Assembly (NCBI GenBank): GCA_963662545.2
Contig: CAXXLL010000003.1
Location: 64,001-128,000, forward strand
DNA length: 64,000 bases
Direction: 5' to 3'
DNA from: Gammaproteobacteria bacterium
GTDB lineage: Bacteria > Pseudomonadota > Gammaproteobacteria > Ga0077536
Below, piece after piece: positions 17,500 through 25,144 of this stretch (its first letter is position 1; each line of letters opens with the position of its first letter). Under the pieces are notes generated by a model that did no database searches, was not told where the DNA came from, and was given only the letters and a program-made list of their open reading frames with translations. The position numbers and the translations under genes were made by a program.

Positions 17500-18270
17500 T
17501 CAAGCAGGCGTATTTGGGGATTTCCGCCGTTTTTGGCTTTGGTTGAGACGATAGCTCTCGCCGTTCATTTCCAGGATATGGACAGGGTGGGTCAGGCGGT
17601 CCAGCAAAGCCCCGGTCAGACGTTCCGAGCCGAATATCTCCGTCCACTCATCGAACGGCAAGTTGGAGGTCACCATGATCGAGCCCCGCTCGTAGCGCTG
17701 GCTGAAGACTTCGAACAGCAGCTCGGCGCCGGTCTTCGAGAGCGGCACGAAGCCGAGTTCGTCGATGATCAGAAGGTGATACTTTGCCAGTTGCTTCTGC
17801 AGGCGCAACAGGCGTTTTTCATCCCTGGCCTCCATCAGTTCATGAACCAGGGCGGCGGCCGTGATGAAGCCGACGGAGAGCCCCTTTTGGCAGGCCGCCA
17901 GACCGAGACCGAGGGCGATATGGGTCTTGCCGGTTCCGCTGTTGCCGAGCGCGATGATATTCTCACGACGCTCTACGTATTCGCATCGCGCCAACTCCAG
18001 AACCAGCATCTTGTTGAGCGAGGCGATGGCCTTGAAGTCGAAGCTGTCGAGGCTTTTGACGGCGGGGAACCTAGCCTGTCTGCTCCGCCGCTCGACCATG
18101 CGGCGCTCACGGTCGATCAGTTCCAACTCGGTCAGACGGACAAGATACCGCACAGGGTCGGCGCCCTCGGTGGCGCATTGGCGGGCCAGCTTGTCGTATT
18201 CGCGCAGGAACGTCGGCAGTTTCAGGGTCTTGAGGTGATGGGCCAGCAACACTTGCGGCGTATCGGTCAT
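17500..18270 (-). CDS. istB: IS21 helper ATPase
   Basis: Walker A GNSGTGKTH, Walker B LLIIDELG, TSNLPF.EW, ALLDRL. Confidence 0.95.
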   Translation of the reverse strand: MTDTPQVLLAHHLKTLKLPTFLREYDKLARQCATEGADPVRYLVRLTELELIDRERRMVERRSRQARFPAVKSLDSFDFKAIASLNKMLVLELARCEYVERRENIIALGNSGTGKTHIALGLGLAACQKGLSVGFITAAALVHELMEARDEKRLLRLQKQLAKYHLLIIDELGFVPLSKTGAELLFEVFSQRYERGSIMVTSNLPFDEWTEIFGSERLTGALLDRLTHPVHILEMNGESYRLNQSQKRRKSPNTPA

Positions 18271-19766
18271 GACGCGCCTCCACCCAACAAGCTCATATAA
18301 CTGGCGGCGGCCGTGGTCGCCACGTTGGCCCGAGGCAGGTAGGGATAGATATCCAGGTCGAGTTTGGGCGGGCGTCGCTCGATACGGCACAGCACAAGGT
18401 GTTTGACGGCGTCGTAGCCGATCGCGCCCAGGCGCAGGGCGTCCTTCACCGCGCCGTGAAGCACCTCGAGATCGAAGGTCTCCAGAAGCCGAAGGACCTG
18501 GACGTATTCCCGCTTGCCGGCCTTGCCCATGCGCGCCTCCAGGAGACGGCGCAGGGTTGGGAAGGCATCAGGCAGTTCCCATCCGGCTAGCGGCGCGGCC
18601 TGATCCAGGGCACCGATCTTGTGCTCCAGCAAAGGCAGGTAGTGGATCGGATCGAAGACCCTATCTTCCCGGTCGTAGGAACGGGGGTGTCGGGCAATGA
18701 TCCCGGCGCCGCAACCGATAACCACCTCGTGGACATAGCCACGGATCCAGACTTCCTGATGGCCGTAGGCGACGGGCACGGAATAGTCATTCGTCCGGTA
18801 GCGCACCAGGGACAGCGAGTTGACCCGCGTGCCCTGCTTGTCGCACGCGTCGAACGGTGCCGGCAGTGGCCTCTTCAACGCTTCGCGGTCACGCACAAAC
18901 CGTTCGCCGATGCTCTCGCGGTGGCCGCGCAGGACGTCGTCTTGCCGTTTGCGGCATTGTTCCTCCAGGTAAGCGTTGAAGGCGTCCCAGCTCGCGAACC
19001 GGGGAAGCGGCGTCATGAAGTTCCGTCGGGCGTAGCCAACCACCCCCTCAACATTGCCTTTGTCGTTGCCCTTGCCGGGACGGCCGTAACGGTCCTCGAA
19101 GAGGTAATGGGACTGCAGTCCGCTGAACGCTCGCGTTCGTTGTCGCGTGCCATCCGGCAAGATGCGCGACACCAGGCACTTGTCGTTGTCGTAGAGAATC
19201 GATCGGGGAACACCGCCGAAGAAGGCGAAGGTTCTGTTGTGCCCGTCCAGCCAGGCCTCCGTCGTCGCTGACGGGTAGGCCGCAACGAAGCAGGCATCGC
19301 TGTGGGGAAGTGTCATGACGAAAAAATGCGCCCGATACTTGACGCCGGCGATGATCGCATCCGCCTCGCCAAAGTCCGCTTGAGCATGGCCCGGAGGATG
19401 TGACAACGGCACAAACATCTCACGCCGACGAAGGCGCCGTTCCCGAACGTAATCCTTCACGATGGTCTCTTTGCCCGTGAAGCCATGTTCGTCGCGAAGG
19501 CGCTCGAATATACGCTTCGCCGTGTGGTGCTGCTTACGGTGAACCGTTCGGTCCTCCTCCAGAATACGGTCGATGATATCCGTGAAGGGGGCCCGTTTCG
19601 GGCGTTTCGGTGGCTGGCGTCGCCGATATCCCGGCGGTTCCGAATGCCGCAGCATCTTCCTCACCGTCTCGCGCGCAATGCCAAACCGACTTGCCGCCTC
19701 TCGCTGGCTCAGACCATCAACATGGCAGGCCAGCCGAACGCGCAGATATAGGTCCACGGTGTACAT
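18267..19766 (-). CDS. istA: IS21 transposase
   Basis: N-terminal HTH, AQADFG, ILYDN, GNDKGNVEG, RTNDYSVP. Confidence 0.95.
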   Translation of the reverse strand: MYTVDLYLRVRLACHVDGLSQREAASRFGIARETVRKMLRHSEPPGYRRRQPPKRPKRAPFTDIIDRILEEDRTVHRKQHHTAKRIFERLRDEHGFTGKETIVKDYVRERRLRRREMFVPLSHPPGHAQADFGEADAIIAGVKYRAHFFVMTLPHSDACFVAAYPSATTEAWLDGHNRTFAFFGGVPRSILYDNDKCLVSRILPDGTRQRTRAFSGLQSHYLFEDRYGRPGKGNDKGNVEGVVGYARRNFMTPLPRFASWDAFNAYLEEQCRKRQDDVLRGHRESIGERFVRDREALKRPLPAPFDACDKQGTRVNSLSLVRYRTNDYSVPVAYGHQEVWIRGYVHEVVIGCGAGIIARHPRSYDREDRVFDPIHYLPLLEHKIGALDQAAPLAGWELPDAFPTLRRLLEARMGKAGKREYVQVLRLLETFDLEVLHGAVKDALRLGAIGYDAVKHLVLCRIERRPPKLDLDIYPYLPRANVATTAAASYMSLLGGGAS

Positions 19767-19933
19767 CCTCCCGCCTTCCATCTCAAAAAAGATCGAAGGC
19801 TACAGGTGGCAGAGTTTTACTCCGCCCGCGGCTGGGAAATCCCGCCGCTTCCGTGGACTAATTTGTCACCGCCGTTCTCACGTATGTAGCATAGGCAATC
19901 AACTGACCTTGACTAGAGATCGAAAAGGCGCCC

Positions 19934-20683
19934 TCAACCCAATGGATCTATCCGACTTAATTCAAGTAACTCACGTATCAAGGGTTGCGCATTGTTTCGC
20001 GACGGAACCTCCGTCTCAATGCGATACAAATAACCCGGCAGCTCATCGCACACGATGAAGGAATAGCTCTTGTTCGCAAAGCGTTCGAATAATTCGCGTT
20101 TGGGATCGTTGAGATACGGCTGAAAGCTGATCTCGAAGCCCTGCCACTCGCGGCCGTCAAATGTAAATGTCTTCGGCGTCACCGTCGCGGATTGCGCCAG
20201 GGCGAACTTGATGCGCCGCTGGAAATAGCGCCAGCGTTCGCGCGAACCTCCATCGGGATCGGTCAGCCTGTTCATTTCGTAGACATCGCCCTGCAGATAC
20301 ACCTTTATCACCGGGTTTACGGTCGCGCTGTCGACGGGTGATACGGGGAAATTGCGTTCGCCAGTCAAAAACTCGACCGACGCGACCTTGGTTCCATCGT
20401 CGTTAATTTTCTGGATTACGAATCGGACTCGATCGGAAAACCCGGTTTCGAGCGAACCTGCCTTTTCAAAGTGGTAAGTCAACTCCATCGCATGCGATAC
20501 CGATTTCAACTGATCGGTGAGCCACAATCGAGTCTCGGCCTCGGAAAACTCGATGCCATCGGCTGCCTCGGGTTCCTGGGCGGTGACGTTCGACCACACT
20601 ACTGTGATCGTGATAACGGACAGGCACAAGCTTGCAATAGCTTGGTGAAACCACCGATATTTCGCCAATCGACTAATCATCAT
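19934..20683 (-). CDS. secreted hypothetical protein downstream of xoxJ
   Basis: Signal-peptide-like N-terminus; 249 aa; overlaps the xoxJ stop, consistent with co-transcription. Confidence 0.75.
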   Translation of the reverse strand: MMISRLAKYRWFHQAIASLCLSVITITVVWSNVTAQEPEAADGIEFSEAETRLWLTDQLKSVSHAMELTYHFEKAGSLETGFSDRVRFVIQKINDDGTKVASVEFLTGERNFPVSPVDSATVNPVIKVYLQGDVYEMNRLTDPDGGSRERWRYFQRRIKFALAQSATVTPKTFTFDGREWQGFEISFQPYLNDPKRELFERFANKSYSFIVCDELPGYLYRIETEVPSRNNAQPLIRELLELSRIDPLG

Positions 20684-21557
20684 CTGCGATCTCCCGAATG
20701 ATCAGTTCGCGCATCGGCACGCCGTACTCCGCCAGGATTTGATCGATCTCCGCCTGATTCTCCGCGATCAATCGATTGATCTGGGCCTTCCATTCATCCT
20801 CGCCAAACCGCACTGCCATCGAGATCTGATAATTAAACCGCAAGCCGGGTTCATTGTTCATTGGAATGACCCGAATTTCGTGATCCTGAATTTCTTTGGC
20901 GTAATAGCCCGCGATTGGCCCCCAGATGAAGGTCAGGTTTATTTTGTCCTGGACGAGATCGCGCTCGATGATCTTGCCCGGGGTTTCCCGGGCGTCTCCC
21001 GTCATCGTCTGATAGGGCGTCCCATACTCCATCAAGTCGACCTGGAATATCCAGTCGGTCGTCGGCCCGCGGTCCCAGATCCCGATGCGGAGTTTTTCTT
21101 TCTGCTCGACCGTCAGCTCTTTCAGATCGTCCTGCGATTCGATGAAGTCTAGCCCCCGGCCCTTGACGTAGACCATGGCCCACGACGAATGCAGATAGGG
21201 GCGGGTCGTCGCCGCCATGTCGAAGTTCTCGATGGTCCCCATCACGAGATCACATTTATAGCTTCCATCAGATGTATCGTTATTACGCAGCGTGTTCCTG
21301 ATGAATCCGATCCGCTGTGGAAACCATTCGTACTCAAGCGGCAGGCTCAGTTTGCGCGCAAACAATTCCGCGATCTTGTTCTCGTAACCGAGCCCTTGCT
21401 TGTTCGACATCGGCAGATTGGAAGGATCGGCACACACGCGAAGCGCCGTACGCTCAGTCACCGGATCTGCTGAAACTGGCGCGCCCAATACGACGCCGAA
21501 GAGCACCAGCGCCAATCGGATATATCGCGCGGATCGGACCTTGAGGAGAGAATTCAT
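20673..21557 (-). CDS. xoxJ: XoxJ/MxaJ-type periplasmic binding protein
   Basis: LRVCADPSNLPMSN, GYENKIAEL, GFIRNTL, CDLVMG, TTRPY, WGPIAGY, ISMAVRFGE. Confidence 0.9.
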   Translation of the reverse strand: MNSLLKVRSARYIRLALVLFGVVLGAPVSADPVTERTALRVCADPSNLPMSNKQGLGYENKIAELFARKLSLPLEYEWFPQRIGFIRNTLRNNDTSDGSYKCDLVMGTIENFDMAATTRPYLHSSWAMVYVKGRGLDFIESQDDLKELTVEQKEKLRIGIWDRGPTTDWIFQVDLMEYGTPYQTMTGDARETPGKIIERDLVQDKINLTFIWGPIAGYYAKEIQDHEIRVIPMNNEPGLRFNYQISMAVRFGEDEWKAQINRLIAENQAEIDQILAEYGVPMRELIIREIADDD

Positions 21558-21616
21558 TGGCAAGGCATGATCTAAGAAAAGGAGAAGAGAATCATGCAAT
21601 AGGTGGCTTGCTTTAT

Positions 21617-22069
21617 CTACTTGGCCTTGTTTTCAAGCGCCTTTTTCATCTTCTTGATCGCGCGGTTGACCATATTTCTCGCAATCTTGATGTTCGCGAG
21701 GTTCTCTTCGATCTGCGCTATATTGGCCGGTGGATCCGCGTCGCCGACGACGATCGCGCCGACCATGCCCGTGCTTATATGCGGAGTGCATTTGTAGATG
21801 TAAGCGCCTTCCTTTTCGACGGTGATGCTAAACCCCTCCTCGCCCATCTTCGAATTCCAGCCCTCGGCGCCTTCGGGGATCATGCCTTCCAGCGCTGCCG
21901 TATCGTGCCCGATCATATTCATGAATCTGACCGTATCACCGGGTTGCGCAAAGGTAACCAGAGGCCTCCACTGGGTGATAACGCCTTTGACGATATGCTC
22001 CTCCGCCGATACCCATGAGCTCACCAGCGCTCCCGCCATGCAAAGGATGACCTGGAATATTCTTTTCAT
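21617..22069 (-). CDS. pseudoazurin-type blue copper protein (cupredoxin) with signal peptide
   Basis: Signal MKRIFQVILC...VSA; PGDTVRF, GHDT, IPEGAEGW, and YKCTPHISTGMVGAIVVG give the His/Cys/His/Met type-1 Cu ligands; C-terminal helices. Confidence 0.9.
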   Translation of the reverse strand: MKRIFQVILCMAGALVSSWVSAEEHIVKGVITQWRPLVTFAQPGDTVRFMNMIGHDTAALEGMIPEGAEGWNSKMGEEGFSITVEKEGAYIYKCTPHISTGMVGAIVVGDADPPANIAQIEENLANIKIARNMVNRAIKKMKKALENKAK

Positions 22070-22242
22070 TCTATTGAACTCCGTTGAACTTACGCTGCCG
22101 TCGCCTTGGCGGCCGTTCCGCACCGGTTTCGGACTTTCACAATAGGCTATCGGCAACACCATGAACGCGGGCTGAATTACGCGGCGCACCTTTATACCAG
22201 AGCGAAACCGATAGTCAATGAAATGGCTGAACCTCGGACCAA

Positions 22243-22282
22243 TAAATAAAAAACCCGGCACTTCGGACGAAGTGCCGGGTTT
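22243..22282 (-). terminator. intrinsic terminator after xoxF
   Basis: Perfect stem AAACCCGGCACTTC-GGAC-GAAGTGCCGGGTTT with a T-rich tail on the minus strand. Confidence 0.85.
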
Positions 22283-22341
22283 AAGCTCATAAAGTCAGTT
22301 TAAGACTGATCTTGTTAATTTATCGCTATCAACGATGCTGC

Positions 22342-24204
22342 TTACGGCAGGCTGAAAACAGTCAACACGCCGCCTAAGCGGGTGAAGCTGTTCAAACCCT
22401 TGTAGGCACCGACCGCACCGAGGCCGTCGGTGTCGTTGATGAGGCCTGCGGCCATGCCGATACCGGCCCAACCGCCAACGCCCGACAGCACGCCGACATA
22501 TTGCTTGCCGCCGTGACCCCAGGTATTGGTGTTGGCGATGATCCCGGAAGGCGTCTTGAACTTCCAGAGCAGCTTGCCGCTCTTGGCGTCAATGGCCTTC
22601 AGGTAACCGCCTAGCGTGCCATAGAACACGACGTCACCGGCCGTCGCCAGCGCACCGCTCCAAACGGAGAAGCGCTCCGGAATCGACCAGACGATCTTGC
22701 CCTTGTCCGCATCCCAGGCAATGAAGTTACCCAGGTTGTTATTGTCGGCGCTGTTGCCGAATTCCGGACCAGGCGAGACACGGCCGGCCGGGAACATGCT
22801 GAGCACAGCGTTCACGTACGGCTGACCCGCCACATACTCACCACCGCTTACCGGCTCGTAATTCATGCAGACGTGGTTCGTCGGCACGTAAAACAGGCCT
22901 GTGCGCGGGCTGTAAGCCGCGGGCTGCTGGTCCTTGGTACCGAGTGCGGCCGGGCAGATGTTGGTGGTATTGACGTCTTCACCCTGAAAGTGGGTGCTGT
23001 ATTTGGCGACCACCTGGGGACGGCCCGTCTTCATGTCGACATGCGTGGCCCAGTTGACCGCGGGATCGTATTTCTCGGCAACGAGAAGCGCGCCGTTGGT
23101 ACGGTCCAGCGTATAGCCGAAGCCGTTGCGGTCGAAATGGACGAGGGCTTTGGTGTCTTTGCCCTTGACCTTCATGTCGACGAGGATCATCTCGTTGATG
23201 CCGTCGTAGTCCCACTCATCGTGGGGCGTCATCTGATAGACCCAGTGGGCCATCCCGGTATCGACGTCACGCGAGATAATGGCCATGGTCCACTTGTTGT
23301 CGCCGGGGCGAACAACCGGGTTCCAGGTCGACGGGTTGCCGGTACCGTAGTAGAACGCGTTGCGCTCTTTGTCGTACGGCCACCAACCCCACACCGAGCC
23401 ACCGCCGATCTTCCACTGATCGCCCTTCCAGGTCTTCAGCGAAGAATCCGCGCCGACGGGCTGACCCAGCGAAGTGGTCTTCTCAGGATCGAACAGCATG
23501 TCCGAATCAGGACCCATGCTGTAGGCGCGCCAGACGCGCTTGCCGTCACTCAGGTTATACGCATTGACCCAGCAGCGCACGCCAAACTCGGCACCGGACA
23601 TCCCCGTGATGACTTTGTCCTTCATCACATGCGGGGCATTGGTGTTGGTTTGACCCAGCTTGGGATCACCGTTCTTGATCGACCAGACGACTTTGCCGTC
23701 CTTCGCGTTCAACGCGACCAGCGTGGTGTCGGCCTGCTGCAGAATGATCTTGCCTTCACCGTAGCCTACTCCGCGGTTGACCACGTCACAGCACATGACC
23801 GGGACGGTCTCGTCGTAGTCTTGAACGGGTACGTACTCCCAGACGATCTCGAGGTTGTCGAGATTGATGGCGAACACGTTGTTGGGAAACGCTGCAACGA
23901 TATACAGCGTGTCATGCGACAGACCCGTTTCTGACCCCGGCAGGACGAGTGGTCCACCTTCGTGCCCACGCAGGACACCGGTGGAAAACGTCCACGCCGC
24001 CTGGAGCTTGTGCGCGTTCTGGTTGTTGATTTGCTTCAACTCCGAATAACGCCAGTTCCAGTAGTTACCACCGGGAAATACCCAGTAGTTGGGGTCTTGC
24101 ATTAGCTTCTCAAGTCCTGCGTTGGCGGACACCTGTGCGGTGCCCACGAACGCCACAAGAGAGGCTGCCGCGATGAGCCATCGCTTAAACGATGTTTTCC
24201 TCAT
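22342..24204 (-). CDS. xoxF: lanthanide-dependent PQQ methanol dehydrogenase
   Basis: [14 protein letters not shown], vicinal disulfide [35 protein letters not shown] (extra Ln-ligand Asp), [32 protein letters not shown]. Confidence 0.95.
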
Positions 24205-24751: not shown

Positions 24752-25144
24752 CTATTCTGGTTCGCCTGCCGTTTTCACAACGGCGTTCGCCTTTTTCCGA
24801 TTCATGCCGATGAAGCATCGTTTCTTGGCGTCGGCCCGTGCTTTGTCAAGCTCACTAACGACCACCTCGGCCCGCTCGCTGTCACGGAAAATCCCGCCCT
24901 TCTCGCCCGGCATACGCCGGTAGATTTCGAAAGTACGCGCCTCGCTGAAATCCTCGAAATCCATCTGCTGTGCGATAATGTCGATCTCACACGAGCAGGC
25001 GTAAAGATTATCGACCGTCTGGCCGCCATGGGTCTTCATGCAGGTCAAAACATGGTCTACGCGTTCGAGCGTGGGGTAGTCGTTGGCCGATGCTGCGAAT
25101 GGAAGAGCGGCAATTAGTAGGATGAGTCCCAGGGTATTTCGCAT
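24752..25144 (-). CDS. small secreted Cys-containing protein upstream of xoxF
   Basis: Signal peptide, then NDYPT..RV..VL.CM and Y.CSCEID. Resembles the hypotheticals found beside PQQ dehydrogenase genes. Confidence 0.75.
   Translation of the reverse strand: MRNTLGLILLIAALPFAASANDYPTLERVDHVLTCMKTHGGQTVDNLYACSCEIDIIAQQMDFEDFSEARTFEIYRRMPGEKGGIFRDSERAEVVVSELDKARADAKKRCFIGMNRKKANAVVKTAGEPE

Follow-up and report, generated by a model that had tools for sequence, protein, structure and literature searches.

Blue copper proteins serve as single-electron acceptors of several periplasmic quinoproteins, the known pairs being methylamine dehydrogenase with amicyanin, aromatic amine dehydrogenase with azurin, and quinohaemoprotein alcohol dehydrogenase with azurin. 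These pairs use tryptophan tryptophylquinone (TTQ) or an internal haem c, whereas the methanol dehydrogenase XoxF is a haem-free pyrroloquinoline quinone (PQQ)/lanthanide enzyme, and we know of no haem-free PQQ alcohol dehydrogenase that reduces a cupredoxin directly. The locus described here lies in a 64,000-nucleotide stretch of DNA (the window; contig CAXXLL010000003.1, positions 64,001 to 128,000) from an uncultured marine bacterium with a genome of 5.58 Mb in 3 contigs. A secreted pseudoazurin-type copper protein is encoded there between xoxF and xoxJ, in the slot where related clusters carry the cytochrome gene xoxG, and, judging from gene content and sequence, methanol electrons likely leave XoxF via copper rather than haem.

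The closest described systems are the xoxF5-xoxG-xoxJ clusters, represented by Methylorubrum extorquens AM1 and by loci L061-L063, L071 and L078 of the present survey. They have the same XoxF5, xoxJ, gene order and terminator as the window locus, and the gammaproteobacterial ones also have its flanking hypothetical genes in common. The differences are that the slot here codes for a type-1 copper protein where those clusters have a c-type cytochrome, and that XoxF carries branch-specific indels. Methanol dehydrogenases are regarded as being tied specifically to a c-type cytochrome of their own, and in strain SolV XoxG and XoxJ are fused in one protein, cytochrome cGJ (bioRxiv 10.1101/2023.10.26.563981). 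The XoxF5/XoxG4 system of Methylococcaceae likewise has a gammaproteobacterial XoxF5 without an adjoining cytochrome gene (PMC5874918, PMC5723320, PMC6277846). In that system nothing occupies the slot (L070), and the methanotroph-type genome G362 yielded no pseudoazurin of this type, whereas here a candidate is in place.

The acceptor of gammaproteobacterial XoxF5 is still under debate (PMC6277846). In most natural environments two xoxF types predominate, and xoxF5 is one of them (PMC12542740). The copper-slot XoxF system is real and conserved, and apparently undescribed. No published description of a xoxF-pseudoazurin arrangement was found, although subscription reviews or supplements may hold one, and a cupredoxin partner of XoxF goes unmentioned in the excerpts available of PMC5723320, PMC5874918, PMC6277846, PMC11845868, PMC12482762, PMC12542740 and bioRxiv 10.1101/2023.10.26.563981.

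XoxF and the copper protein in the xoxG slot

On the minus strand, the order runs from a Cys-rich secreted open reading frame (ORF) through xoxF, a terminator, the cupredoxin gene, xoxJ and a hypothetical gene to an IS21-type insertion sequence (IS) element. The preliminary description of this DNA had placed xoxF, a cupredoxin, xoxJ and a secreted hypothetical on one strand, and all four are indeed found in that order on the minus strand. The XoxF-grade gene, the cupredoxin gene, xoxJ and both hypotheticals each occur as a single copy in the genome.

The xoxF gene (22342..24204, minus strand; 620 amino acids) scores over the TIGR03075 cut-off. Its best PDB matches are the XoxF structures 6dam (E 1e-267, 893 bits) and 6oc5 (832 bits); MxaF-type entries reach at most 574 bits, which places the protein closer to XoxF5 than to MxaF, and it groups with XoxF5 rows on a tree. 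The lanthanide-ligand motif D-Y-D reported earlier is present ([10 protein letters not shown]), giving the D-x-D pattern of XoxF5; its codons, read from the sequence at 23203..23211 (minus strand), specify the catalytic Asp and the extra lanthanide-ligand Asp. A vicinal Cys-Cys pair (CC) is also present. By these features the enzyme is of XoxF5 type, with lanthanide-dependent methanol oxidation predicted, and pqqC and fae are found in the genome. Eight other PQQ dehydrogenases are encoded, 28-36% identical to XoxF and none of XoxF grade. At another PQQ dehydrogenase gene (G000:C3:893198-896603), an IS splits the dehydrogenase from its small cytochrome c gene, apparently truncating the cytochrome start.

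The cupredoxin gene (21617..22069, minus strand; 150 amino acids) starts with the ATG at 22069 and ends at 21617. Inspection by eye suggests a signal peptide of 22 residues, which puts the mature start at 22003. It is the sole PF00127 match in the genome (Pfam Copper-bind, E 4e-11), and its best PDB sequence matches are pseudoazurins (3tu6, E 1e-21). An AlphaFold model (predicted local distance difference test score 97) shows a cupredoxin barrel followed by two C-terminal helices (95-104 and 109-127); its top-ranked Foldseek matches are all pseudoazurins, with E down to 2e-13 and 27-37% identity in structural alignments. The four copper ligands, which the preliminary description had reported as intact, are H33, C72, H75 and M80 (mature numbering) in a C-x-P-H-x4-M loop, and they are invariant in 27/27 rows of one alignment and 36/36 of a second.

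Classical pseudoazurins (Alcaligenes, Achromobacter, Paracoccus, Sinorhizobium 3tu6) have the same fold, His-Cys-His-Met site and pair of C-terminal helices. The protein here differs from them in scoring below the pseudoazurin equivalog cut-off of TIGR02375 (82.2 vs 109.85 bits), in the lack of NirK, NosZ and NirS from its genome, and in its tie to xoxF and xoxJ. The name "pseudoazurin-type" is used because of that score: by sequence the protein is a pseudoazurin-type subfamily member outside the curated equivalog, and its copper content is predicted. A denitrification partner was rejected, with NirK, NosZ and NirS giving short partial matches alone and none of full length. A plasmid search returned classical pseudoazurins alone, at <60% identity.

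The Lys-rich C-terminal helix was earlier proposed as a docking surface. Its basic character is conserved (R114 and K118 in 36/36), and so are acidic residues of the core; the net charge is -7 for the core and +7 for the helix. It is, however, the standard C-terminal helix of pseudoazurins, and it may or may not act in docking. In XoxF docking, Lys residues on the dehydrogenase face carboxylates of the acceptor (bioRxiv 10.1101/2023.10.26.563981), a rule that points to the acidic core and not to the basic helix.

In many relatives the slot holds a tandem pair of pseudoazurin genes (L031, L032, L035, L040, L082, L083, G112, G302). The first copy, a tethered form, begins with a lipoprotein-like signal and contains a long linker rich in Pro and Ala; the long form stands alone in L041, L103 and L118, and the first copy is broken in G016.

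Next to the copper protein, xoxJ (20673..21557, minus strand) encodes a periplasmic binding-protein-like methanol dehydrogenase accessory protein and belongs to TIGR03871 by score (263.5 bits vs a cut-off of 212.15).

Absence of XoxG and conservation of the copper slot

The earlier observation that the locus contains no c-type cytochrome gene stands, and none lies within ±6 kb of 13/13 related loci. A search of the whole genome (96.85% complete) for xoxG or mxaG, which had been suggested with that observation, found neither: the MxaG and XoxG family models gave weak matches alone (23-24 bits, none over cut-off), and an alignment of nine slot cytochromes gave no match at E<=1e-6. The XoxG in or near the locus that marks the canonical xoxF-xoxG-xoxJ cluster is missing here, with no XoxG- or MxaG-grade match genome-wide. 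On the XoxG model (TIGR03874), the cytochromes that fill the slot at related XoxF5 loci reach 74-159 bits, so such a gene in this genome would have shown up. Three cytochromes of G362 (MxaG, a c6 and one unassigned mono-haem protein) also find no match in this genome, and the last of these, whose identity as XoxG4 is unconfirmed, finds none in 81 genomes of the family. PF13442, a model that XoxG4 may escape, matches 26 proteins in the genome, of which 17 were read with their neighbours; they resemble generic c4, c5 and c552 cytochromes, SorU-like proteins, oxidase or flavoprotein subunits and quinohaemoprotein domains.

Within the family set of 81 genomes, xoxF is matched in 45 (threshold E<=1e-150) and the cupredoxin in 65. 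Both occur in 44/45 xoxF-positive genomes, the exception being G471, where the xoxF match stops at residue 421. The xoxF-cupredoxin-xoxJ synteny that the preliminary description wished to see surveyed proves conserved: the cupredoxin gene adjoins xoxF in 33/34 fetched family loci with this XoxF type, and the remaining locus ends at a contig edge.

The class sample comprises 401 genomes, 42 of them matching xoxF; 40 loci were fetched from these, with G227 and G184 added. Families f59, f204, f15, f16 and f161 likewise have the copper gene in the slot. In six genomes (f89, f40, f174), xoxF lies elsewhere and pseudoazurin and xoxJ are still together. A TIGR03874-type cytochrome (E 1e-20 to 5e-47) sits in the slot or beside xoxJ at nine more distant XoxF5 loci from eight families, which often share the flanking hypotheticals as well. 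At E<=1e-35, a threshold chosen after the scores were seen and applied to a profile built from the branch defined below (G063 excluded), the copper subfamily is present in 20/21 branch genomes, 1/17 with other XoxF5 and 3/358 without a xoxF match; at E<=1e-20, the last figure becomes 12/358.

In a quick maximum-likelihood tree built from 64 XoxF-like rows, among them 16 family loci and the window, with XoxF pieces <550 amino acids excluded, 39 rows from 11 families form one branch (Shimodaira-Hasegawa-like approximate likelihood ratio test, SH-aLRT, 100). Within this branch, the copper gene is adjacent in 24 rows, pseudoazurin-xoxJ lies elsewhere in 8, pseudoazurin lies elsewhere in 6, and in one (G227) neither partner was found. 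All nine cytochrome-slot rows fall outside the branch and none inside. One change on the tree suffices to account for 32 copper-linked and 9 cytochrome rows, and from these sequences the swap from haem to copper in the slot appears to have happened once.

The XoxF proteins of the branch also differ in sequence. They share an insertion at mature positions 62-68, EPVSG at 423-427 (V425-S426-G427) and G438N; the insert, V425-S426-G427 and N438 are absent or rare in 20 XoxF rows outside the branch. The EPVSG segment and G438N align with MxaF 420-424 and 433, which we take to be the active-site entrance funnel. Net charges of XoxF and its partners do not separate copper-type from cytochrome-type enzymes. 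It seems somewhat probable that the whole gammaproteobacterial XoxF5 branch, found in no fewer than 11 families, most of them uncultured, exchanged a haem acceptor for copper and changed its entrance loops to match.

The anticorrelation with xoxG proposed earlier holds for the slot, which is never occupied by a cytochrome in the branch, and is incomplete genome-wide, as unlinked XoxG-like genes occur in 15/45 xoxF-positive family genomes.

Some loci depart from these patterns. G447 carries a XoxJ-XoxG fusion (L129:1462-2907), resembling cytochrome cGJ of Verrucomicrobia, beside a second, more distant XoxF (54% identity), with a copper-type locus also in the genome. In G024 (L108), a divergent XoxF paralogue (57% identity, long branch) that matches neither the CC nor the DYD pattern is followed by pseudoazurin, with no xoxJ. 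In the closed 1.5-Mb genome G028 (L074), a xoxF5-xoxJ pair falls outside the copper branch and nothing XoxG-like is matched genome-wide; a related pseudoazurin gene lies ~6 kb away, directly before petABC-like genes. This is possibly an independent case.

Possible electron routes from XoxF

The pseudoazurin-type protein is probably the direct acceptor of XoxF in place of XoxG and, in addition, a general periplasmic carrier. Four points favour this reading: the copper gene has replaced xoxG at its position, it is tied to xoxJ, XoxG is missing from two-thirds of the family genomes, and XoxF has loops specific to the branch. XoxF would oxidise methanol, and its reduced PQQ would pass two single electrons to two Cu(II) pseudoazurins, which would in turn hand them to a haem-copper oxidase. 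The genome does encode oxidase subunit II. Pseudoazurin potentials of about +260 to +280 mV are close to that of cytochrome cL, and the XoxF-to-copper step would therefore be downhill. The proposal of the preliminary description that XoxF may pass electrons to or via a copper protein draws support from synteny, from the absence of xoxG here and from the cytochrome that holds the slot in sister loci. The copper protein is not exclusive to XoxF. A co-fold of mature XoxF with the pseudoazurin (36-row alignment each) scored 0.01 against a mark of 0.32 and is counted neither way.

Several observations weigh against direct transfer to copper. The copper gene is kept without xoxF in 6/7 g4 and 4/6 g7 genomes, and G435 and G443, which lack xoxF, keep it at the old chromosomal address; it therefore has a XoxF-independent job. 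In the five xoxF-less g4/g7 genomes read, it adjoins formate dehydrogenase. G227 (95% complete) has this XoxF type and neither partner was found. Unlinked XoxG-like cytochromes occur in 15/45 xoxF-positive family genomes (E<1e-30) and in 5/17 branch genomes outside the family (E<1e-20). Three TTQ amine-dehydrogenase-like operons in the present genome have no cupredoxin of their own. The swap is a single evolutionary event and not repeated co-evolution, so the genome counts are not independent, and the search profiles were built from the same proteins that they score. No listed RNA-run contig bridges xoxF into the copper gene. Finally, Methylomonas XoxF5 uses an unlinked XoxG4, non-homologous to other XoxGs (PMC5874918).

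This last case (see also PMC5723320) is the precedent for the best-surviving alternative, in which XoxF reduces an unlinked cytochrome (an orphan XoxG, a XoxG4-like protein or a generic c4/c552) and pseudoazurin only relays electrons to the oxidase, like cytochrome cH. Generic c4, c5 and c552-type cytochromes are indeed encoded in this genome, and retention of the copper gene after xoxF loss suits a downstream carrier. XoxG-like orphans (E<1e-30) exist in 23/81 family genomes. All 20 that were read (±5 kb) are unlinked to xoxF or xoxJ, and 19/20 form one weakly supported group among the linked XoxGs (SH-aLRT 82); from their sequences they look like descendants of the displaced xoxG, surviving in a minority of genomes. 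In an obligate methylotroph, azurin is reported to act after cytochrome cL. The distribution of the orphan, however, does not follow that of xoxF: it is present in 15/45 xoxF-positive and 8/36 xoxF-negative genomes (two of the latter eight hold xoxF fragments at contig ends), and none was found here. The MxaG, c6 and unassigned mono-haem cytochrome of G362 are unmatched in this genome as well, and for a carrier acting further down the chain, lasting linkage to xoxJ would be unexpected. Such a two-step route is rather unlikely.

XoxF might also reduce pseudoazurin and, in genomes that have retained it, the orphan XoxG too, the switch depending on the supply of copper, iron or oxygen, as in the exchange of plastocyanin and cytochrome c6. 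This is compatible with pseudoazurin being a direct acceptor; the haem route would then still be physiological in part of the branch. The resemblance of the orphans to displaced xoxG descendants speaks for it, as does the position of some beside RegAB-like or cytochrome bd-like ORFs. It is inapplicable to this genome and to the 30/45 xoxF-positive family genomes without a XoxG-like match at E<1e-30, among them the near-closed G004, G019 and G473, and the orphan also occurs in genomes without xoxF, which makes interchangeable acceptors improbable. The orphan neighbourhoods, read by eye, often contain RegAB-like two-component genes (L169, L173, L177) or cytochrome bd oxidase-like genes (L171, L178, L179), hinting at a low-oxygen role.

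That pseudoazurin merely serves the TTQ amine dehydrogenases or shuttles electrons from bc1 to oxidase, in a slot inherited from an old insertion, is very improbable: its retention without xoxF, the related gene directly before petABC-like ORFs in G028 and the amine dehydrogenase-like operons lacking a cupredoxin would fit, but XoxF would be left without an identified acceptor in two-thirds of the family genomes, and it would go unexplained why the gene sits in exactly this slot, why pseudoazurin-xoxJ cassettes occur apart from xoxF and why XoxF has branch-specific changes.

If direct reduction of pseudoazurin by XoxF is correct, electrons from methanol would reach the terminal oxidase via lanthanide-PQQ and copper without passing through a haem on the way. 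XoxF would then be, as far as we are aware, the first known haem-free PQQ alcohol dehydrogenase with direct electron transfer to a cupredoxin. PQQ enzymes would gain a wider chemistry, and marine methanol turnover would be tied to copper and lanthanides, possibly and speculatively in an iron-sparing manner.

Terminator, transcripts and flanking genes

An intrinsic terminator-like hairpin (22251..22282, minus strand; 14-bp stem and U tract, -24.8 kcal/mol) lies 3' of xoxF, and the preliminary description had raised it as a caveat to linkage between xoxF and the cupredoxin gene. The hairpin between the two genes is real. Strong hairpins with U tracts are seen behind xoxF in 22/24 copper-slot, 6/7 cytochrome-slot and 7/8 xoxJ-direct loci; the terminator is a general feature of xoxF5 loci. 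The objection was rejected, as the same hairpin precedes xoxG in the 6/7 cytochrome loci.

Contigs from four RNA runs of two studies, one of them labelled sponge metagenome, cover xoxF in 4/4 runs and parts of the copper gene in 2/4. The xoxJ gene has no such cover, which proves nothing, and contig depth is unable to rank genes. A 7.7-kb control stretch is nearly empty, with a 42-nt piece alone in 2 runs.

Upstream of xoxF, a conserved secreted Cys-rich hypothetical of 130 amino acids (24752..25144, minus strand) has no Pfam or NCBIfam match. Its homologues lie near xoxF in copper-type and cytochrome-type loci alike, and this ORF is part of the gammaproteobacterial xoxF5 module. At the other end, a conserved secreted hypothetical of 249 amino acids (19934..20683, minus strand) overlaps the end of xoxJ by 11 nt and comes after xoxJ in both locus types; it belongs to no Pfam or NCBIfam family, and its nearest ESM Atlas clusters are unnamed, with recognition below the tool's mark. 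Both secreted proteins are candidates for unrecognised XoxF maturation or lanthanide-handling factors.

Directly after the 249-residue hypothetical lies the IS21-type element (istA/istB; window 17500-19880). It lies between the module and formate dehydrogenase genes; in relatives (L029-L033, L037 and L039) these genes are directly next to the module.

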